Assembly (NCBI GenBank): GCA_018062445.1
Contig: JAGOSG010000003.1
Coordinates: 29,842 to 93,841, forward strand
DNA: 64,000 nucleotides
Direction of reading: 5' to 3'
DNA from: Minisyncoccota bacterium
GTDB taxonomy: Bacteria; Patescibacteriota; Minisyncoccia; Phycocordibacterales; Phycocordibacteraceae
Positions 3,006 through 38,116 of this stretch are shown here, piece by piece. Under the pieces are notes generated by a model. The model saw only the letters and a program-made list of their open reading frames with translations, did no database searches and was not told the origin of the DNA. Position 1 is the first letter of the stretch, and every line of letters starts with the position of its first letter. Position numbers and translations under genes: made by a program.

Positions 3006-3040
3006 AAAAGCTGGAAGCTGACAGCTGGAACCTGAAACCT
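3006..3040. repeat. family A repeat, right inverted repeat flanking the four-helix-bundle gene
   Basis: aaaagctggaagctgacagctggaacctgaaacct; inverted relative to 2601-2635. Confidence 0.6.
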
Positions 3041-3479
3041 ACCCCCGCTGTTTCTTGTCACTATACATACTCTCCTTTATATCCAAGCTCCACGCTAAGT
3101 CTTTAATTTTGTTTGAAGTGGCTGAGGGGGCATATTTTGCTGGATCTTCAGCGGGTGTTTGCCCAGGTAGAACAATTTCGTCAGGGAGGACAGTTTTTGA
3201 TTGTTTCTTTTCCCAAATATAGAGTTTTGTGCGAAAAAGGTACTGAAAGCCAGATTCGAGAGCGTTTATAAGTGGTCGGTCATTAATTTTATAGAATGCG
3301 AGCCCAGCACCCAACAGTGCGATTGGTCCACCAATAACTATTGCCAACCAGTGAGGCATAACAAACCAGAGGGCTACGAGAAACCCTCCTCCCCCGACGA
3401 GGTATATAAACTGTACTGCGGTCAGAGGGCCGAAAATTTTGTCTTCAACTTCAACGAATTGAGGAACTTGGAATTGCAT
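3039..3479 (-). CDS. PrgI/VirB3-like conjugation membrane protein
   Basis: N-terminus MQFQVPQFVEVEDKIFGPLTAVQF typical of PrgI family; two TM helices; sits upstream of VirB4. Confidence 0.6.
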   Translation of the reverse strand: MQFQVPQFVEVEDKIFGPLTAVQFIYLVGGGGFLVALWFVMPHWLAIVIGGPIALLGAGLAFYKINDRPLINALESGFQYLFRTKLYIWEKKQSKTVLPDEIVLPGQTPAEDPAKYAPSATSNKIKDLAWSLDIKESMYSDKKQRG

Positions 3480-3486
3480 ACTAATA

Positions 3487-3600
3487 AGAGTATAGCGTTT
3501 AGTAGTTAGCGTCTAGTGTTTTTCATCTAGTCATGGCTTCTAAAAACTTTTATAGCCATCGAAGTTAATGGAGTATTTCTTTAGAATTTCCCTAAACTCT
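3487..3600. repeat. family B motif pair in inverted orientation upstream of the PrgI-like gene
   Basis: tatagcgtttagtagttagcgtctagtg ... ccctaaactctatccactaacccc. Confidence 0.45.
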
Positions 3601-3622
3601 ATCCACTAACCCCTTTCCACTG

Positions 3623-4396
3623 TTACTCTACTGGCTCTCGGTACGGGTCAACCCCTCCTTTGTACGCTGGTTTTGGCGCTTCACTTACCTGTGGTTTTAT
3701 CGATGTGGGGTTTTGGGTTGCGGATGGAGTGCTATCTGTGGTTACTCCTTCTAATTTTTCTTCTGAGATTGGCGTTACCGGTATATCCGTTTCAGTTTTT
3801 TTAGTTTCAGGAGATGCATCTGCAACTAGTCCTAGTTTTTCCGCAACAATGCTTACTGAGGGTGTGTTTACGATTTCTTTTAATGTGACCGATGCTGTTG
3901 CGAGGCGTTTTTTTTCAGCTTCAGCCTCTGCTATTTCTTCAGGGTCAACCCAGCCTTCGATTTCTTCTTTTTCTGCGAGAGCGTCTAATTCTGCATCGGT
4001 CGGCATTCTGGTAGCTTCAGCTCCCTCTTGTGGCTTCGGGCCGAACTCTTCAGCATCCCACCCAGGCTCTGGTTCCATGATATTTTCACGGAGACGGCGA
4101 CTCGCCTCTTTGAAGATGCGGTCATTGAGATCATTTACTATCTCACGCATGGTTGCACTGCTAAGCTCAGGAAGAGCTTGATGGAGGTTGGTTTCAAGTG
4201 CCGACATAGGCTCTAGACCAAGCAGGGTAAGATTGGCAACCTTGCTCATTAAACTACCTTGCCATAAGTTAAGGTGGTTTTTTTTGATTAATCCGTCGTA
4301 TATTTCTGTGATTGTGTTCGAGCTTAAAAAGTCGCGAACTGGTTTCGGCAGTTTATCTTTTGCTTCCGCCCTCTCTTCTTTGGAGTATGTTTTCAT
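3623..4396 (-). CDS. hypothetical acidic protein, low-complexity C-terminus
   Basis: ORF in T4SS-like cluster; no recognisable domain. Confidence 0.45.
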   Translation of the reverse strand: MKTYSKEERAEAKDKLPKPVRDFLSSNTITEIYDGLIKKNHLNLWQGSLMSKVANLTLLGLEPMSALETNLHQALPELSSATMREIVNDLNDRIFKEASRRLRENIMEPEPGWDAEEFGPKPQEGAEATRMPTDAELDALAEKEEIEGWVDPEEIAEAEAEKKRLATASVTLKEIVNTPSVSIVAEKLGLVADASPETKKTETDIPVTPISEEKLEGVTTDSTPSATQNPTSIKPQVSEAPKPAYKGGVDPYREPVE

Positions 4397-4402
4397 ATAT
4401 TG

Positions 4403-7400
4403 TTAACTTCCAAAAGTATCCGTGTAAGCCGTCTCTTGTTCAGGAGTTAAGTGTTTCTGTTTACGCATTTCATCTAACCATGCTCGTGCTGAGTCACGTA
4501 TTGTACCCCCTGCTTTTACAGCGCGAATGAGGCCCCAGATAATAGCTCTCATTTTTGCTGGTGCAATGTACGTGTCTGTTTCGATGGCCTTTAGCTGCCT
4601 ACTGTCGAGTTCCTGAATGAAGTCTCTGCTTCCTAACATTTCTTCGGGCAATTCTTTCACAAGTTCAGCTGCTTCTGCTGGTGGAAGGTTATGGATGAGT
4701 GGTGCAATATCTTCGATGACCGTCGGCGTTTCAGGCACAGGAGGTGTCTCAGGGCTTTCTGGTGCTGCGCCTTCAGTCTGTATAGTAGTTGGCGCTGAAC
4801 CCGAAGAAGTTGCTCGACTTCGTAGTGCACTTGCAATACGAGATCGTGGTGTTTCTTCAAATTCGATTTGCCTCTCGATTGGCTGTCGGCTCACGGCAGA
4901 TGCATTCCTCTCCGCTATAGTCTCTATCTCGCTTGTTCGTCCTAGTCGGGACTCAACTTCTTCAAGTGACGCCATACCAAGACGTCTTCGTTCCTCGTTT
5001 ACCCTCTTTCGCATTTCGTCTGTGACCTCGTATTTTGATTGGCCGTCAGGGTTAGTGAGAATCCACTTTATGGCACTCTCATCACCGTAGACCAACATAC
5101 TGACACCCTGGTCTTCCATCCATACCGTATCTTTTGCAAGTCCGTATGCTTGACCAGCGTTAATGTATTTACCCATAAGCCGCTTACCCAAATCTTCCTG
5201 CTTCATTTCGTCTTGGATTTCGTTTGCCGCCTTTCCTTTGGCATATTTGAAGAAGTTATCTTCGGCGGTCTTTCTTTTTTCTGCCGCTCTGCGCACGTCT
5301 TGGTTTCGGCGGATCTTTCTCAGTTGCGCTTCCTGATCGCTCGTTATGATGCCCTTCTCGGTTTGTTCGCGCATTCGTGTATCAAACTCTTTGTCTGAGA
5401 GAGAGTCACCGTTTTCATCAAATGCATTTCTGGAAAGGAGATTTCGTTCCTGTTCACTCAGTCCCCTAGAAATGCTATTGCCTTGTTCATCTTTGTCTTG
5501 GATTGTGATTGTGTTGAAGACAGCGCTCGCTTCATCGTCAATTTTGAAGTTTATGTTTCCACGACGACGCTTGAGTGCACGCAACTTTCGTTTCTTTCCG
5601 CTCGCGATTCTAGAGTTTTTTTGTAGCTGTGTGTAAACCCCACTTGTTATTGCATCGTTGAATATTTCATTTTCCTGTAGACCCATTTCGAGACCTGGGT
5701 TTGACGTAAAGAAGTCAATTAATTCGTCAGCGGAGACGTTTTTCTTAAGCTCCTCATGGAGCCAGTAGCGTTTATCATTATACTCATCGCTGTATCTAAG
5801 TATTTTGCCCGCTGCCTTAGCTTCGTCCGTTAGTCTTCCATCAGCGGTGAGGTATTTTTCGTCTCCTTTCTTTGTGTCGACCGCATCCACGACTCTTGCT
5901 TCAAAGGCTTGGGCTGAAGTCATAACACCACCGAGGCGAGCCATTCGTATCTCGTCTCTTGTTTCACGGTCTATTGTCTTGTCCTTAACGATTTCGAGGG
6001 ACTGTTCTGTGGTGAGTGCTCGTGCCAACCTTTTGAACTCTGCTTTGTTACGTTTGTACTCTTCCTTAATGAGGTCAGTCGAGACATCGGCAAATGGCTG
6101 TTTCAGTTGATCAGTTGCATCGGCCATGGTGAGCATGATTTTCTCTCCATTCTTATCTACTGCCCCCGTATCGAACTTCTCCGTTCGCTTTAAGCGGTCG
6201 TTGTACGCGAATTTATTTTCCCAACCCCAGTTTCCGTCCTTATCTTTTACCCAACGTCTTCCTTCCCAGAGCGGTACGCCGTTCTTATCGATCTTGTTTC
6301 CATTTTGGTCCACCTTATCTCCGTCTTGCTTTCGCTTTGCTGTCCACTCCGCCCTCTCCTCGTCGTTCATCTTGTGCCAGTTTTTAGGAAGACCTGCTTT
6401 CACGAGGTCTTCCTTGCTGGATTTTCCGGTTATCTTTATGTCGTCTTCACCTTTCGCCACTGCCTTGTCGAACGCAGCTTTTACTGTAGCTTCTTGATCG
6501 AGGTGACCTCCTTTTTTTAGAGCATCCTCCTTTTTCTTGACGTAGTCGCTGACATTCGCGAGTTTGATAGTGCGTTGTTCTCTTTGCTCCTTCAAGTCCC
6601 CATAACTTGTCTTGCTACCAAACTTTGCATCTTTAAGAAACTTAGTGCCTTTCTGTATGCCACGGTCAAGAGTGGCGAGTCCTGGAACTTGGTCGAGGCG
6701 TCTTCCGCCAAGGAATCCCCATTCTCTTGCTGCAATTTTCTCTTCGTACCAGTGTCCAAGTTTATCGCCACCAAATCTCCCGATAGTTTCTCGCGCTGTC
6801 ATAGCCCCAACGTTAGTAGTAACCCAATTTGAAGCCTTGTATACATCGGTAAGGCGTTTTGCAGCTTCACTCATACCTTTAGCGATTTTGAGTGACTGCA
6901 ACATAAAGATTACTGCCACCATGAAAGTGAGTAGTGTGCCAATGAGGTTGGGACTTTCTCCGCTGAATGCGCCACTGGAATTATCAAGAATAGTGAGAGA
7001 AAAACCAACAAGAAGAAAGTACACGGGGGCAAAAAATGCCTGACTGAAAAGCGCTTCCCACCACTCCTTGGCGTATCTATTTATTTGCGGGATGGCAAGA
7101 CCGGCTATGCCGATTGGTGAGGTGATGAGAATGAGAATCAATGCGACGAATCGTCCCAATAATAGTGTGATAGCAGACAGAAATACAAATATTGTGATAC
7201 CAATGACTACGATAGCCAAAAGATCTTGCACGATTGCCATCCACTGGGAATCTTGTTTGATATCCCCAACTTTTTCATCTGCCAGATATGCCGCTATGTT
7301 GTGATTGTTGGTCCGGATGACTCTGTCAAAACGAGAAACAATGGTACAGCTCTCCCTACAATTTTCTGTGGATATGGTTGCCTTGTAGATTGCTGTAGCG

Positions 7401-8011
7401 AGAAAGTTAGAAGAATCAATAACAGCTCCTGCGAAAAAGAAACTAAAGTTTACAAGAAGAGCTGCAATGATGAGTCGCACCAAAAGTTTTTGGGCGTTTA
7501 TTGCTGCAAGATGCAGAATGGTACCAATGGCAGTTGCAATAAGGCCACCAATTATAGCGAGGTTTGCAAGGTCACGCATAATACGCCACGCGATTTGTAT
7601 ACCAACAGCGTCTGATGAGGTGACAAAGTGCCCCATGTTGACGACTAGCTGCTCCACAACGAAATTGAAAAAGCTTCCTACGAGGAAAAGAATAAATGTC
7701 ATTATTTGCACCAGTAGCCAGGTGATTATATGGAGGATGCCCCCAATAAGCTCTCCAAGAGGGTCTATCACGGCATCTTTTATTGCTTCCGCTATCCTGG
7801 CACCAGCCGCACCTTGTTCTGCTGAGTAGGTGGCTTCTGCAGTTTGTTGAGCTGTCGCAGCTTCAGGTGCAACAGTTGCAAGACCGCCAGCCGCCCCGCT
7901 TGCTCCAGGCTCCCCAGCAAATGCTAGATGTGAAGGCACCACAAACCCAGCGAGAGTAATGGTGAGTAAAAGAATTAAAAAAACTTTCTTCATGTCTAAT
8001 AGGTTCTGCAT
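4403..8011 (-). CDS. VirB6/TrbL-like polytopic membrane protein with ~800-aa charged coiled-coil-rich C-terminal extension
   Basis: Signal-like N-terminus, ~6-8 TM helices in the first 400 aa, then K/E/D/R-rich hydrophilic region; 1202 aa. Confidence 0.6.
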   Translation of the reverse strand: MQNLLDMKKVFLILLLTITLAGFVVPSHLAFAGEPGASGAAGGLATVAPEAATAQQTAEATYSAEQGAAGARIAEAIKDAVIDPLGELIGGILHIITWLLVQIMTFILFLVGSFFNFVVEQLVVNMGHFVTSSDAVGIQIAWRIMRDLANLAIIGGLIATAIGTILHLAAINAQKLLVRLIIAALLVNFSFFFAGAVIDSSNFLATAIYKATISTENCRESCTIVSRFDRVIRTNNHNIAAYLADEKVGDIKQDSQWMAIVQDLLAIVVIGITIFVFLSAITLLLGRFVALILILITSPIGIAGLAIPQINRYAKEWWEALFSQAFFAPVYFLLVGFSLTILDNSSGAFSGESPNLIGTLLTFMVAVIFMLQSLKIAKGMSEAAKRLTDVYKASNWVTTNVGAMTARETIGRFGGDKLGHWYEEKIAAREWGFLGGRRLDQVPGLATLDRGIQKGTKFLKDAKFGSKTSYGDLKEQREQRTIKLANVSDYVKKKEDALKKGGHLDQEATVKAAFDKAVAKGEDDIKITGKSSKEDLVKAGLPKNWHKMNDEERAEWTAKRKQDGDKVDQNGNKIDKNGVPLWEGRRWVKDKDGNWGWENKFAYNDRLKRTEKFDTGAVDKNGEKIMLTMADATDQLKQPFADVSTDLIKEEYKRNKAEFKRLARALTTEQSLEIVKDKTIDRETRDEIRMARLGGVMTSAQAFEARVVDAVDTKKGDEKYLTADGRLTDEAKAAGKILRYSDEYNDKRYWLHEELKKNVSADELIDFFTSNPGLEMGLQENEIFNDAITSGVYTQLQKNSRIASGKKRKLRALKRRRGNINFKIDDEASAVFNTITIQDKDEQGNSISRGLSEQERNLLSRNAFDENGDSLSDKEFDTRMREQTEKGIITSDQEAQLRKIRRNQDVRRAAEKRKTAEDNFFKYAKGKAANEIQDEMKQEDLGKRLMGKYINAGQAYGLAKDTVWMEDQGVSMLVYGDESAIKWILTNPDGQSKYEVTDEMRKRVNEERRRLGMASLEEVESRLGRTSEIETIAERNASAVSRQPIERQIEFEETPRSRIASALRSRATSSGSAPTTIQTEGAAPESPETPPVPETPTVIEDIAPLIHNLPPAEAAELVKELPEEMLGSRDFIQELDSRQLKAIETDTYIAPAKMRAIIWGLIRAVKAGGTIRDSARAWLDEMRKQKHLTPEQETAYTDTFGS

Positions 8012-24156: not shown

Positions 24157-25086
24157 GTGCGAAGTTGGCGTTATACTCTATGGATGGATATTCAGAACCT
24201 GAAACGAGAATTTCTTGAATACATTGAGATCACTAAAGGTCGAAGTATAAAAACTGTTGAAAATTACGACCACTACCTCACTCGCTTCCTCGAATTTTCA
24301 AAAGCGAGTGATGTTGCTGATGTGAGCGAAGAAAAACTTCGTGAATTTCGTTTGTGGCTTAACCGCCAGCCAGGCACAGCTGGCAATATGATGAAACGCA
24401 AAACTCAGAACTACTACCTTATTGCGCTTCGCGCATTTTTAAAATTTCTTGCAAAGCGAGGCATTAAAGCGCTTCCCCCTGAACATATTGAGCTTGCAAA
24501 GGTTCCGGAGCGCTCACTCGACCTCATTACAGCGAACGAATTGGAGCGGTTAATGAAGTCTCCTGTGGGGAATGGAGTAAAAGAGCTCCGTGACAGAGCC
24601 ATTATGGAAATGTTTTTCTCAACCGGGCTTCGTGTCTCCGAATTATGTGCACTTGATACTGATTTAGACCTTTCTCGTGATGAACTCTCTGTTCGCGGAA
24701 AAGGCGATAAAGTGCGTGTAGTGTTTCTCTCCCCTACCGCAAAGACCAGCGTGTCTGCGTATTTAAAAGCACGAAAAGATATGGCCGAAGCTTTGTTTGT
24801 TCGACATAGTACGGGGAAGAAAATTCCTTCACGTCTCACCCCTCGCTCTATAGAGAATATTATAAAAAGTTGTGCCATTAAGGCAGGTATTACAAAAAAA
24901 GTTACCCCTCACGTCATTCGCCACTCGTTTGCCACTGATCTTTTGGAAAATGGTGCTGATTTACGTAGCGTTCAAGCCCTTTTAGGTCATGCAAATATTG
25001 CCACTACGCAGATTTATACGCACGTTACCGACAAGCACCTCCTCGATGTACATAAGGCGTTTCATGGAAAGAAAAGAGTGAAGTAA
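24157..25086 (+). CDS. xerD: tyrosine site-specific recombinase XerC/XerD family
   Basis: SAM-like N-domain; catalytic R..HxxR..Y (RHSFATDLLENGADLRSVQALLGHANIATTQIYTHV). Confidence 0.85.
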   Translation: MRSWRYTLWMDIQNLKREFLEYIEITKGRSIKTVENYDHYLTRFLEFSKASDVADVSEEKLREFRLWLNRQPGTAGNMMKRKTQNYYLIALRAFLKFLAKRGIKALPPEHIELAKVPERSLDLITANELERLMKSPVGNGVKELRDRAIMEMFFSTGLRVSELCALDTDLDLSRDELSVRGKGDKVRVVFLSPTAKTSVSAYLKARKDMAEALFVRHSTGKKIPSRLTPRSIENIIKSCAIKAGITKKVTPHVIRHSFATDLLENGADLRSVQALLGHANIATTQIYTHVTDKHLLDVHKAFHGKKRVK

Positions 25087-26281: not shown

Positions 26282-27745
26282 TTATACATGGTGCTTTGCT
26301 CTGATTTCTTCAAGTTCTTTCTCTTCCGCCTTTTCACGAGCTTTTTTCCCCTCTTCCCCCATCTCTTTGAGCGTGGAATCCTCCATTAGTGACAGAATCT
26401 GAACTTTTTCTTCCAGATATTCTTTCGTATTCTTTTTGGGGTCTTCTAGCACCTCTTCTAGTAATGCGTGCAATATCCAACCAACTCGAGGCCCTGGTTT
26501 TTCACCGAGGATTTTTATAACGGATTCTCCATTAACTGCCAGCATGGCAACCGAGATAGGATCACGAAGCGCCTCATCCACCATTGATTTATATTTACGA
26601 AAACGAAATGGCTGCTCCTTAGGGCGACCAGTACCAATGCGGTCGCAGATACGGAGATTCAGGAGGTCCCAAATATTTTCCTGCCCAACATTAACTATCA
26701 TGCGCCTAACGGCTGAAAGTGTAATTTTGTCAGGGTCTGAAAAGAACATGTGCCAGCGCACCAGCTTAGTCGTTTTTTCAATGATTTCGTTTGGGAATTT
26801 TAAATCTTGAAGAGCCCGTTTTGCCACTCGAGCACCAACCACTTCATGTCCATGGAATGTCCAATCCTTTTTTTCATCAGACCACCGCCTAGTTTCTGGT
26901 TTTGAGATGTCATGGAAAAGCGCAGCAAGGCGGATGATAAACGGCCACTCTTTGTCAGCAGCATGTTGCATGGCGCGAAGCAGGTGTTCGAATACATCGA
27001 ATGAGTGTGCCTGATTTTGTCCTATGCCAATTCCCCGCTCGATGTCTGGTGCAATATATTTCAAAAGCCCAAGTTTATGGGAAAGAAAGATTGCTTGCAT
27101 CGGCGTGGCAGTTTCAAGAATACGAATAAATTCATCACGGATTCTTTCTTTAGATATTTTTTCAAGTTGTGGAGCATTTGCGTGCAAGGCCTCAGCCGTC
27201 TCTTGTTCAATAGCAAACCCTAGTTCTGCCGAAAGACGAACGCCACGCATCATGCGAAGAGCATCTTCTTGAAAGCGTGCACTAGGGTTTCCTACGGCTT
27301 TAATTAAGCATTTTTTTATGTCTTCATGGCCCCCGTGCAGATCCACCATCTCCCCTGTTTTTGGTCGATATGCGATGGCGTTCACTGTAAAATCTCTCCG
27401 TTTTAAATCTTCCTCCAGAGAAACACCAAACTCCACACTGTCGGGTCTTCGGGCATCTGAGTAGGTGCCTTCTTTGCGGTATGGTGTGACCTCAATAACC
27501 TTAAGTGTTGGGTCTTCCGACTCCCCTACTACGCCGACAGTTCCATATGTATTTTCATAGAAAGTTTCTGGAAATATTTTCTGTATCTCTTCAGGTGTTG
27601 CATTTGTTGTAAGATCCCAATCTTTCGGTTTTTTCTCAAGAATAATGTCACGAACGCAACCTCCAACTAGGTATGCTTCAAAGCCGGTATTCTCAAGGCC
27701 ATCAGCAACGAGCAGTACTTCTTTTGGAATTGCTAATTTCGTCAT
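26282..27745 (-). CDS. cca: CCA tRNA nucleotidyltransferase with HD domain
   Basis: GGCVRD nucleotidyltransferase motif and C-terminal HD domain. Confidence 0.85.
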   Translation of the reverse strand: MTKLAIPKEVLLVADGLENTGFEAYLVGGCVRDIILEKKPKDWDLTTNATPEEIQKIFPETFYENTYGTVGVVGESEDPTLKVIEVTPYRKEGTYSDARRPDSVEFGVSLEEDLKRRDFTVNAIAYRPKTGEMVDLHGGHEDIKKCLIKAVGNPSARFQEDALRMMRGVRLSAELGFAIEQETAEALHANAPQLEKISKERIRDEFIRILETATPMQAIFLSHKLGLLKYIAPDIERGIGIGQNQAHSFDVFEHLLRAMQHAADKEWPFIIRLAALFHDISKPETRRWSDEKKDWTFHGHEVVGARVAKRALQDLKFPNEIIEKTTKLVRWHMFFSDPDKITLSAVRRMIVNVGQENIWDLLNLRICDRIGTGRPKEQPFRFRKYKSMVDEALRDPISVAMLAVNGESVIKILGEKPGPRVGWILHALLEEVLEDPKKNTKEYLEEKVQILSLMEDSTLKEMGEEGKKAREKAEEKELEEIRAKHHV

Positions 27746-27815
27746 AGGCTCATTGTACGATAGGAACTTGGCACTCTAGTGGCTCGAGTATAAGAAAATT
27801 TCTGTGTGAAATTTA

Positions 27816-27975
27816 ATTGTACTCCCGGAGGGATTCGGTCACGCATAATTTTCCTCTGAAAATTTTAGCTAAGCCTCTCGGCACGATTTTCTAATCGCCC
27901 GCCTCACTCGCCTTCGCTCGCTCCGGCTTTCGAATCCCTCCGCAACATAGCAAAATCTGCTAACGCCGATTTTTT
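27816..27975 (-). ncRNA. tRNA-Arg-associated structured element (family of 3)
   Basis: Immediately 3' of tRNA-Arg on the minus strand; contains hairpin tagcagattttgcta, core ggagggattcgaaagccggagcg, and ends gtgaccgaatccctccgggagt, a copy of the tRNA-Arg T-arm/acceptor 3' end. Confidence 0.4.
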
Positions 27976-27978
27976 ATG

Positions 27979-28050
27979 TGCTCCCGGAGGGATTCGAACC
28001 CCCAACGACTGCTTCGAAGGCAGTTATGATATCCATTTCACTACAGGAGC
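27979..28050 (-). tRNA. tRNA-Arg (anticodon TCG)
   Basis: Manual fold: acceptor gctcctg/cgggagc, anticodon loop cTTCGAa, T-arm ggggg-ttcgaat-ccctc. Confidence 0.85.
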
Positions 28051-28172
28051 AACTGTTCTATCCTACGCTACACATTCGCTTCAAACAAATACCCCTTCAA
28101 AAGAAGGTCGGTGTTCTTGTAGAGCGTTCCCCTAGTCTCACTGACTCGAAGTGTGCTATAAATAAGCACATT

Positions 28173-28243
28173 GCGGGTATGGTTTAGTGGTAGAATGCGT
28201 CCTTGCCAAGGACGAGACTCGGGTTCGATTCCCGATACCCGCA
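28173..28243 (+). tRNA. tRNA-Gly (anticodon GCC)
   Basis: Acceptor gcgggta/tacccgc, anticodon loop tTGCCaa, T-loop ttcgatt; CCA not encoded. Confidence 0.9.
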
Positions 28244-28265
28244 CAAAAAATGAAGTTTTTTGTGC
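28242..28265 (+). terminator. hairpin with flanking A/T runs after tRNA-Gly
   Basis: cacaaaaaa-tgaag-ttttttgtg; the 5' arm is the tRNA 3' end. Confidence 0.5.
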
Positions 28266-28412
28266 GGGTATAGCAAGCCATTTGTTTGGCTTGCGTAAGG
28301 GAATCGAAGCGCGGAGCGATGTTTCCCGTTGCGGGAAACCGTGAGCGGGGGTTGCGACCGAGGCGAACATGGGTGAGCCGAGAGTTGTAACCGATTCCCG
28401 ATACCCGCACCA
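28264..28412 (+). ncRNA. tRNA-Gly-associated structured element (family of 3)
   Basis: Starts gcgggtat (same as tRNA-Gly 5' end), hairpin agcaagcca..tggcttgc, core gtaagggaatcgaagcgcggagcg, internal hairpin gtttcccgttgcgggaaac, ends gtaaccgattcccgatacccgcaCCA (21-nt copy of the tRNA-Gly 3' end plus encoded CCA). Confidence 0.45.
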
Positions 28413-28705
28413 ATTTTTATGTCAGCAGAGATAGTAGACTTTGAGTCGGCTCGCAGGAGTGACTTGTGGCGCAAGGCCCGCCCTCTAGTTGGCGCTCAAA
28501 TTATTCTTACTTTGAAGTGTTGGCGTGACAAGCCCAATAAACCAATCTCCAGGTTTCATTTACTTGGCACAGGAGTCAGTACATCTGGTAGACCAAGTTT
28601 ATTTGTACAAGCAGGCAGAGTCACTACATCGATAGCTATAGGCTTCGATGAGATAGACCGCATCGATTTTGAAAGTTGGGGTAAGGATGTTCCATAAGAA
28701 ACGCG

Positions 28706-29271: not shown

Positions 29272-29282
29272 ATCAAACTTAG

Positions 29283-29353
29283 TCGGGGCGCCGAGAATCG
29301 AACTCGGTCTATCTGCTCCCAAAGCAGACGTACTACCGGTATACTACGCCCCG
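29283..29353 (-). tRNA. tRNA-Pro (anticodon TGG)
   Basis: Minus-strand fold: acceptor cggggcg/cgccccg, anticodon loop tTTGGGa, T-loop ttcgatt. Confidence 0.85.
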
Positions 29354-37786: not shown

Positions 37787-37857
37787 GCGGGATTAGTTTA
37801 ATGGTAGAACATCAGTTTTCCAAACTGATAGCAAGGGTTCGATTCCCTTATCCCGCA
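37787..37857 (+). tRNA. tRNA-Trp (anticodon CCA)
   Basis: Acceptor gcgggat/atcccgc, anticodon loop tTCCAaa, T-loop ttcgatt. Confidence 0.85.
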
Positions 37858-37866
37858 CCTTAATTA

Positions 37867-37895
37867 AAATGACCCGCTTTCTGCGGGTCATTTTA
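37867..37895 (+). terminator. intrinsic terminator after tRNA-Trp
   Basis: aaaatgacccgc-tttc-tgcgggtcatttt. Confidence 0.55.
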
Positions 37896-37906
37896 ATTTA
37901 CGGATA

Positions 37907-38058
37907 GCGGGATGAGTGAGCAAATGGCTTTGCTCACGTAGGGAATCGAAAAGCGCAGGCATATTTTTGTTTGCGTTTCGCAAGGCAAAAATGCCGAGCT
38001 GGGGTCGCGAGAAATTTCCGTCAGGAAATTTACTTGTGACCGATTCCCTTATCCCGCA
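37907..38058 (+). ncRNA. tRNA-Trp-associated structured element (family of 3)
   Basis: Starts gcgggat (same as tRNA-Trp 5' end), hairpin gagtgagcaaa..tttgctcac, core gtagggaatcgaaaagcgcagg, nested hairpins, ends gtgaccgattcccttatcccgca (copy of the tRNA-Trp 3' end). Confidence 0.45.
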
Positions 38059-38065
38059 CCCATTT

Positions 38066-38093
38066 AAAAACCCCGCCATTAGGCGGGGTTTTT
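38066..38093. terminator. bidirectional intrinsic terminator
   Basis: aaaaaccccgcc-atta-ggcggggttttt, between the Trp element and the hup 3' end. Confidence 0.6.
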
Positions 38094-38116
38094 AAATGAA
38101 ACTTTCTTCCTAAAAG

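Follow-up and report, generated by a model that had tools for sequence, protein, structure and literature searches.

The 64,000-nucleotide stretch of contig JAGOSG010000003.1 from a Minisyncoccota bacterium (hereafter the window, meaning the whole stretch analysed) carries three copies of a structured element, each ~110-160 nt long and located directly 3' of its gene for transfer RNA (tRNA)-Arg and both of its tRNA-Gly genes, on the tRNA's own strand. A covariance model of the family to which they belong (R1), whose seed of 108 members includes both Gly copies and excludes the Arg copy, finds exactly three matches in the 64 kb, and the motif GTRACCGAWTCCC is present three times in the window, as compared to 0.19 occurrences expected by chance. 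Elements linked to tRNA genes at these positions had been proposed in a preliminary description of the same DNA and are recovered here as three R1 matches, with folds far more stable than those of shuffled sequences. Their features are listed below, with X_L and X_R designating the upstream and downstream repeat of the tRNA 3' end and P1 to P5 designating helices.

27978-28050, minus strand: tRNA-Arg(UCG) gene (ARAGORN, Rfam)
27996 down to 27978, minus strand: Arg X_L, the 3' 19 nt of tRNA-Arg
27939-27977, minus strand: Arg spacer with a weak hairpin and no acceptor-strand copy; GCGGAG extends P2; identical in relative L057
27830-27938, minus strand: Arg core (R1 43 bits, E = 1e-8, outside the seed; fold z-score −3.4)
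27819-27837, minus strand: Arg X_R, CGAATCCCTCCGGGAGTAC, 18/19 identical to the tRNA end
28173-28244, plus strand: tRNA-Gly(GCC) gene (ARAGORN; Rfam tRNA 70 bits)
28226-28244, plus strand: Gly(GCC) X_L, CGATTCCCGATACCCGCAC, C56-C74, the last 19 nt of the tRNA
28245-28263, plus strand: Gly(GCC) spacer, A6-loop-T6 (read from the sequence)
28264-28298, plus strand: Gly(GCC) left arm, with P1 5' strand GCGGGTAT (28264-28271), hairpin P1.1 (28272-28294) and linker GTAA (minimum-free-energy fold and sequence)
28299-28399, plus strand: Gly(GCC) core (R1 63 bits; fold z-score −5.9)
28392-28412, plus strand: Gly(GCC) X_R (28392-28410) and CCA (28410-28412), then the original trailer; matches the empty site of relative L121
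37787-37859, plus strand: tRNA-Gly(UCC) gene (ARAGORN anticodon tcc; Rfam 76 bits)
37840-37858, plus strand: Gly(UCC) X_L
37860-37906, plus strand: long hairpin between tRNA-Gly(UCC) and element, AATTAAAATGACCCGC/GCGGGTCATTTTAATT (from the sequence)
37907-37940, plus strand: Gly(UCC) left arm, with P1 5' strand GCGGGAT (37907-37913), hairpin P1.1 (37914-37937) and linker GTA (fold)
37941-38048, plus strand: Gly(UCC) core (R1 81 bits, best family match in the window; fold z-score −9.3)
38041-38060, plus strand: Gly(UCC) X_R, 20 nt identical to the tRNA end
38061-38098, plus strand: intrinsic terminator directly after X_R (terminator scan: 17-bp stem and T-run)

All three copies share one layout, which starts with GGGAWTCGAA (the reverse complement of the T-loop and 3' T-stem), continues through a variable structured middle to a conserved GTRAC and finishes with a copy of the tRNA from C56; the closing helix is made in each case by the element's GGGAWUCG and the downstream duplicate of the tRNA T-loop/T-stem. 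In the Gly(GCC) core, the order of the parts is P2 5' strand GGGAATCG, P3/P4 arm, P5 arm, GTAAC and P2 3' strand CGATTCCC. The repeat shared exactly with the tRNA measures 19 nt in Gly(GCC), 20 nt in Gly(UCC) and 16 nt in Arg (18/19 overall), rather than the 21 nt (Gly) and ~17 nt (Arg) first reported. Two supposed additional tRNA-Arg fragments, at 27822 and 27930, turn out to be the two strands of the Arg element's closing helix, and the gene preceding the third copy, formerly taken for tRNA-Trp, is tRNA-Gly(UCC) according to both ARAGORN and Rfam.

An acceptor-like helix, consisting of the tRNA's first 7-8 nt and a hairpin and placed 5' of the P2 strand, is part of both Gly copies; the same start had been ascribed to the Arg copy, which is without it and instead has, in the predicted fold, a T-arm helix (P2) stretched to 11 bp. 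The Arg core belongs to a variant subfamily with GGGCGATTAGAAAATCGTGCCGAGAGGC in its middle, also found in L003 and L122, and the base of its P5 is partly degenerate. Together with the acceptor 3' strand of the tRNA, the Gly(GCC) spacer and positions 28262-28271 form a perfect 16-bp palindrome, which is kept in relatives L057 and L120 with differences that are symmetric. The terminator at 38061-38098 is probably the original one of tRNA-Gly(UCC); since it comes after X_R, the Gly(UCC) element would sit inside the tRNA transcription unit.

Family, hosts and fold

Scanning one genome per prokaryotic species for the pattern GGGAWTCGAA-N(68-98)-GTRACCGAWTCCC yielded at least 118 loci (L001-L118), against ~4 matches expected by chance according to our own estimate; the counts of loci and elements given below cover these listed matches. 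R1 matches 132 times in L001-L100 and 21 times in L101-L118, corresponding to at least ~150 copies in 114 loci, and by this model the core is common to the three window copies and the ~150 listed ones. About 35 of the R1 matches, many of them in tandem, are missed by the pattern. Four pattern matches (L014, L068, L107 and L118, from Planctomycetaceae, Longimicrobiales, Acidimicrobiales and Acidobacteriia) lack the core, score at most 21 bits with R1 and were rejected as members, a number consistent with the ~4 chance hits calculated.

The carriers are nearly all Patescibacteria of many classes, accompanied by five Elusimicrobiota, and include Saccharibacteria, Paceibacteria/Parcubacteria, Kaiser-, Nomura-, Campbell-, Falkow-, Morani-, Yonath-, Lloyd-, Adler- and Yanofskybacteria, Gracilibacteria and Peribacteria, with doubtful taxonomic labels on a few of the metagenome-assembled genomes. 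Seventeen tRNA isotypes, of which Ser is the commonest, and five transfer-messenger RNA (tmRNA) genes act as hosts. For most elements (82/118), a tRNA or tmRNA gene on the same strand lies <140 nt upstream, and the element starts a median of 58 nt after it; all 82 with an adjacent tRNA are co-oriented with it, and none of the 118 has only an opposite-strand tRNA nearby. Several apparent orphans trail either tandem elements or a tRNA that ARAGORN misses because of an insert in its anticodon loop. In L108 (minus strand, ~7140-7440 in reverse-complement coordinates), a tRNA-Leu(UAA) gene with a ~240-nt, group I intron-like insert in the anticodon loop, likewise missed by ARAGORN, sits directly 5' of an R1-type element. 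In the public-collection sequences, runs of N mask part of the Pro-linked element in L057 (~1369-1427) and the sequence upstream of 697 in L113.

The elements are ~110-200 nt long, contain no open reading frame (ORF) and have the consensus core GGGAWUCGAA-AG-NC-GGAG-[variable hairpin]-CGAG-GN-GGGGUCGMG-[variable hairpin]-YGUGACCGAWUCCC. Searching the region with all 4227 families of Rfam 15, by cmscan at the gathering threshold and at E ≤ 10, returned only tRNA-related noise; no model of a ribozyme or intron (group I/II, hammerhead, twister, hatchet, pistol, HDV-like) matches over it at E ≤ 10, and full-text literature searching found no description of this element family.

RNAalifold and pair counting give a three-way junction made by P2, P3 with P4, and P5. 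Standard pairs are formed in 94.0% of cells, versus 74.7% across 500 shuffles; the covariation score is 0.453, as compared to 0.126 for shuffled alignments and at most 0.059 when partners are slid; and both partners vary in 20 of the 24 pairs, versus 12.4 in shuffles. One G·U pair of P5 is kept in 120 of 129 sequences, and a second pair alternates between G-C (62) and G-U (42); the opposite strand would show A·C mismatches at these positions. In 115 of 120 cores, the forward strand also folds with greater stability than the reverse complement does (mean −50.1 vs −40.8 kcal/mol). The strong covariation and the conserved G·U pair indicate that the fold belongs to the tRNA-sense single strand; moreover, the Arg and Gly(GCC) copies, with 350 bp between them, are on different DNA strands and both run in the direction of their respective tRNA, so that orientation tracks transcription and not replication. 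There is good evidence that the fold is better explained by a functional RNA than by a duplex-DNA site.

The closing helix follows the local tRNA. Position 5 of P2, which involves T-loop position 59, is a U-A pair in 68 copies, A-U in 44 and C-G in seven, and agrees with the T-loop of the neighbouring tRNA in 81 of 82 cases. At tRNA-Pro sites, where the 3' strand is CGATTCTC, two relatives have GAGAATCG or AGAATCG as its partner, whereas a third has GGGAATCG, which leaves one G·U. About one third of copies, far more than expected by chance, contain a stretch of 7 nt or longer that is complementary to the acceptor 3' strand of the local tRNA, and the energies of the acceptor-strand duplexes are better than those of permuted pairings (p = 3e-4); at a tRNA-Asn site, the same position holds an 11-nt complement of a tRNA-Ser end.

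Insertion at the 19-bp repeat and turnover among relatives

All copies are insertions with a 19-bp direct repeat from the tRNA gene on either side, the upstream repeat completing a working tRNA and the displaced original tRNA end being reused as one strand of the element's closing helix. Among the listed elements, the exact repeat starts at C56 and its length peaks at 19-20 nt (C56-C74); shorter repeats correspond to decayed copies, and a tail of the length distribution reaches 61 nt where the trailer is also duplicated.

Five syntenic relatives (L057, L120, L121, L122 and L123), whose CCA-adding enzyme is 85-99% identical to that of the window, were compared by mapping site occupancy on a neighbour-joining tree of this enzyme. 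Filled and empty sites differ among these genomes, with no cargo-bearing boundaries, as follows.

tRNA-Pro(UGG) site (window gene at 29282-29353, minus strand, identified as an empty site by comparison with the relatives): filled in all five relatives, with two copies in tandem in L121; empty in the window; one precise loss in the window lineage
tRNA-Gly(GCC) site: filled in the window, L057 and L120 (one clade); empty in L121, L122 and L123; one gain
tRNA-Arg site: filled in the window, L057 and L122 (R1-type) and in L120 (unrelated 163-nt element); empty in L121 and L123; mixed

In the window, the tRNA-Pro gene has CGATTCTCGGCGCCCCGAC only once, and the trailer behind it is the one that comes after the downstream repeat in the relatives. 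The empty Gly(GCC) site of L121 reads ...CGATTCCCGATACCCGCA|CCAGTTTTTATGTCAGCAGAGG, identical to X_R and the right flank of the window, and across the gene end ...CCCGCA|CCAGTTTTTATGTCAGCAGAGG; this identifies the downstream repeat, together with its CCA, as the original end of the gene, and the upstream copy now joined to tRNA-Gly(GCC), GCA|CAAAAAATG, as the new one. Consequently, the CCA that had been attributed to the Gly element and not to its tRNA does follow the element, but is the tRNA gene's original genomic CCA. An origin of X_R by copying from mature tRNA was considered and rejected, as it rarely carries a CCA that is absent from the gene (four cases, with two of the opposite kind), and the one in the window is genomic.

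Turnover is rapid: among genomes that differ by 1-15% in the neighbouring protein, new copies have appeared, others have been removed precisely by deletion from one repeat to the other, and copies have been exchanged between sites or have accumulated in tandem. A case of core replacement is provided by L057, whose CCA-adding enzyme is 98.6% identical to that of the window and which yet has another core subfamily at Gly(GCC), 88% identical to the window's Gly(UCC) core; a mosaic is seen in L121, where one tRNA-Pro element combines a Pro-site-specific left part with a core of the window's Gly(GCC) type. The Arg copies of the window and L057 are each degenerate in different places and, elsewhere, whole and broken units form tandem and fragmentary arrays. 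At the array ends in L052 (4330-4420, plus strand) and L073 (2940-3130, minus strand) there are partial units, one a truncated left arm up to GGG and the other a lone ...CTGTTAC|CGAATCCCTC, which place clustered breakpoints at both P2 strands.

The element that follows tRNA-Arg(UCG) in L120 (~3600-3770, minus strand) is 163 nt long, has no R1 match and bears a T-arm-like direct GGGTTCGAAC; as it also has the 19-nt C56-C74 repeat, at least two families share one insertion signature. The orientation of tRNA-Arg(UCG) itself is inverted between the genomes with the R1-type element (window, L057 and L122) and L120, L121 and L123, which on the CCA-enzyme tree needs at least two inversions or lateral exchange. 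In L003 (700-950, plus strand), a 5'-truncated second tRNA-Gln is interrupted exactly after T55 by an Arg-type element with no upstream repeat, and three short copies of AATTRGRGTT (tRNA-Gln 46-55) lie near it.

The window region is ordinary chromosome of a member of the Patescibacteria (Candidate Phyla Radiation), with four tRNA genes recognised by ARAGORN and Rfam and with genes for PNPase, a NYN-domain protein, a XerD-like recombinase (24157-25086), exonuclease III, the CCA-adding enzyme, YraN, adenylosuccinate lyase and an ECF sigma factor. An identical CCA-adding enzyme is assigned by NCBI to a "Candidatus Pacebacteria" metagenome-assembled genome. The gene for this enzyme in the window (26282-27745, minus strand) is separated by 73 nt from the end of the Arg element, an adjacency that is apparently coincidental, since it is maintained in the gene order of relatives whether or not they have the element. 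Beginning 7 nt past the Gly(GCC) element, a 92-aa ORF (28419-28697, plus strand) with no Pfam match is taken to lie outside it, because L121, whose Gly site is empty, has a 92-residue gene at the matching place and its post-tRNA DNA aligns.

Interpretation and comparison with known systems

We consider it probable that the family consists of non-autonomous elements of tRNA and tmRNA 3' flanks, similar to the RtT repeats of Escherichia coli and mobile or at least recombinationally active; the gain, precise loss, core replacement and tandem arrays seen among relatives bear out, in outline, the earlier suggestion of a miniature mobile element that targets tRNA genes. From its position between tRNA and terminator, the element would be transcribed with the tRNA; enzymes that process tRNA 3' and 5' ends may then release it, and it may persist as a harmless hitch-hiker on highly expressed essential genes, with the RNA fold presumably required for stability, propagation or both. 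A speculative further step that we favor is that the 5' strands of the element act as a guide by pairing with the 19-nt tRNA 3' strand, that insertion duplicates exactly the paired segment, and that the insertion enzyme is supplied in trans. Such a guide would fit the way in which P2 agrees with the T-loop variant of the local tRNA, as well as the perfect palindrome seen at the Gly(GCC) copy, a recent gain. A fuller version, in which the elements would be parasites of tRNA genes that use GGGAWUCG and the acceptor complement as guide and a "19-nt ruler" on the acceptor/T-arm minihelix, regenerate the tRNA and enter a strong transcription unit, with E. coli RtT as a possible distant analogue, is put forward only tentatively and seems to us rather doubtful.

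Several observations weigh against mobile elements of this kind. Clustering of the ORFs near the 118 loci reveals no recurrent integrase, reverse transcriptase or transposase, and we know of no transposase that fits a 19-bp duplication. The acceptor-complement strand is local in only about one third of copies and, in conflict with guide-directed insertion, is clearly foreign (tRNA-Ser-like) at the tRNA-Asn site and apparently so at the tRNA-Pro sites; several copies also have a hairpin between tRNA and element that could terminate transcription. Finally, the strong purifying selection on the fold could fit a host function equally well.

Because selection on the fold is so clear, a serious rival is a tRNA-linked regulatory or decoy RNA of benefit to the host, processed by RNase P and RNase Z, that would mimic the top half of tRNA and bind a factor that handles tRNA (for example the CCA-adding enzyme, EF-Tu, a RelA-type sensor or a toxin), and whose spread between tRNA loci would be confined to duplication and gene conversion. 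Selection on RNA is suggested by the deep covariation and by the conserved nucleotides of the junction, an acceptor-like helix occurs in about one third of copies, far above chance, and the copies are co-oriented with the tRNA and inside its unit; the strand-specific covariation and the 82/82 co-orientation also uphold, in outline, the family of tRNA-end-mimicking non-coding RNAs that the preliminary description had envisaged. One repeat unit of the E. coli tyrT operon encodes an rtT RNA that was detected experimentally (Bösl & Kersten 1991, as cited in PMC3318445), and rtT, the mode of action of which is still called unknown, is said to affect the stringent response (bioRxiv 10.1101/2024.07.17.603846). 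On the other hand, occupancy of the same site varies among genomes that are 85-99% identical in the neighbouring protein, partly degenerate and truncated copies as well as fragment arrays exist, the acceptor mimic is absent from most copies, and ORF clustering over the 118 loci finds no conserved partner gene nearby. A host-beneficial RNA therefore appears possible but somewhat unlikely.

We deem it improbable that the elements are attachment-site scars or minimal integrase-mobilised units (akin to cis-mobilizable elements, CIMEs), remnants or satellites of islands moved in trans by a tyrosine integrase or Xer recombinase with a crossover in the T-loop. The direct repeat of the tRNA 3' end from the T-loop on and the use of tmRNA genes, which Williams reportedly described in 2002 as typical of integrase targets, would fit this idea, as would precise loss between repeats and the XerD-like gene of the window. 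However, neither cargo nor integrase accompanies the ~150 copies, the ORFs around the 118 loci representing housekeeping families only; the XerD-like gene keeps its position in relatives whether their sites are filled or empty; and the fold is strand-specific with a conserved G·U. In addition, one core subfamily occurs at Ser, Cys, Asn and Leu genes, each with its intact and correct local tRNA end, which rules out an element that carries its own replacement end. Nor was any match to the elements, such as a related attP on a phage, plasmid or integrative and conjugative element would give, found in IMG/VR, GenBank phages or PLSDB plasmids. With no cargo or integrase, a XerD gene of constant position and a core that is a folded RNA, the scars of a nearby XerD recombinase first suggested for this locus do not account for it in their simple form. 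Still less probable is a folded single-stranded DNA site in the style of integron attC or CTX-phage attP, read by a Xer/IntI-type recombinase: structure is conserved above sequence and strand-specific, and the genome encodes a tyrosine recombinase, but one of the frequent G·U (G·T) pairs is conserved, the folded strand tracks tRNA transcription instead of replication direction (as in the Arg and Gly(GCC) pair, 350 bp apart), attC-type motifs were not seen, and the ORFs near the 118 loci show no linkage to a recombinase.

The possibility of a degenerate duplicate or intron-bearing tRNA gene, to which the ends of the two Gly copies, being tRNA ends, might point, is effectively refuted, in agreement with what was initially concluded. 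On both strands, ARAGORN and RF00005 leave the elements without a score, even at E ≤ 10, no cloverleaf or tRNA-like domain being recognised by these or by RF00023, and the same non-tRNA core stands behind 17 isotypes. Virtual splicing across orphan elements recovers only intact, ordinary upstream tRNAs, one of them with an anticodon-loop insert. The tRNA introns of Patescibacteria dealt with in PMC13011429 are those at position 35/36 in the anticodon loop, and the elements sit elsewhere.

Among mobile systems, tyrosine-integrase islands and their CIME remnants resemble the elements in leaving the tRNA intact, in a direct repeat that starts in the T-loop, in targeting tmRNA and in precise excision; the elements differ by being 110-200 nt long without integrase or cargo, by their folded-RNA interior and by the presence of one subfamily at many isotypes with the correct local end. 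MITEs (miniature inverted-repeat transposable elements) that fold as RNA, such as those of the Correia, ERIC and REP types, are likewise small, non-autonomous, multi-copy, complementary at their ends and co-transcribed with their neighbours. In contrast to these, the elements lie strictly at tRNA 3' ends and have a 19-bp flanking repeat rather than one of 2-10 bp, an "inverted repeat" that derives from the target and is strong in no more than about one third of copies, and a conserved three-way junction as core instead of a simple long hairpin; the 8-kb flanks of the listed loci, to which the search was confined, revealed no autonomous partner that encodes a transposase and has the same ends. 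Casposon and CRISPR-type (Cas1) integration, a possible parallel, generates a long target duplication that regenerates the target, as well as repeat-insert-repeat arrays, and some casposons use tRNA 3' ends; the elements appear to differ in having neither Cas1 or polymerase genes nor casposon-like terminal inverted repeats.

The closest known analogue in terms of architecture is E. coli RtT (Rfam RF00391; rttR; the 178-bp repeats of the tyrT operon), which has been part of E. coli annotation since the late 1970s with no agreed origin or function. An RtT unit lies behind the tRNA-Tyr gene or another RtT unit and ends in AATCCTTCCCCCACCACCA, 19 nt corresponding to A58-A76, with which GGGGAAGG pairs, closing a two-hairpin multibranch. 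In both systems, the unit is directly downstream of the tRNA on the same strand, as in all three window copies; an outer helix forms between a 5' segment and the tRNA-derived tail (GgGaaGG/CCuuCcC in RtT and GGGAWUCG/CGAWUCCC, which covaries, in the elements) and encloses a multibranch with two hairpins; and units occur in tandem, are non-coding and have an unresolved function. The differences concern the register of the repeat, which is C56-C74 in the elements and A58-A76 in E. coli, a shift of two nucleotides; the hosts, namely 17 isotypes and tmRNA throughout the phylum versus only the tRNA-Tyr of enterobacteria; and insertion polymorphism, which is documented for the elements. RF00391 (gathering threshold 45 bits), which scores 133-137 bits on the E. 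coli tyrT locus as a positive control, has no match in window positions 27700-28500 at E ≤ 10 or in the Candidate Phyla Radiation loci at E ≤ 1, and R1 has none on the E. coli control locus; in view of this lack of cross-match and the shifted register, the elements are placed outside the RtT family. Sequence kinship with RtT was rejected, as the shared word pair GATGAGAA...CGAAGGG occurs in only one listed locus. In L022 (minus strand), a short element, GGGAGGGATGAGAAC-hairpin-CCCGAAGGGGAATCCCTCTCTCTGCA, located just upstream of an R1-type element (plus strand 3021-3139), shares with RtT the words GGATGAGAA and CCCGAAGGG, a pair present in this locus only, and is given no score by RF00391.

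The novelty claimed for the elements at the outset therefore stands as far as Rfam 15 is concerned, but not as regards their architecture, as RtT shares the unit downstream of the tRNA, the 19-nt tail and the outer helix: they form a large new family, uncatalogued and widespread in Patescibacteria, within a class that is known yet poorly understood, the RtT-like repeats linked to tRNA genes. The family explains spurious "tRNA fragments" beside tRNA genes in assemblies of this phylum and merits an Rfam entry. If mobile, the elements would exemplify harmless colonisation of essential genes in very small genomes by an insertion chemistry so far undescribed; if functional, they would be among the most abundant uncatalogued structured RNAs of Patescibacteria. 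A phylum-wide analogue of RtT, with many subfamilies, datable gains, precise losses and core swaps, offers comparative material on the origin and role of tRNA-linked repeats.

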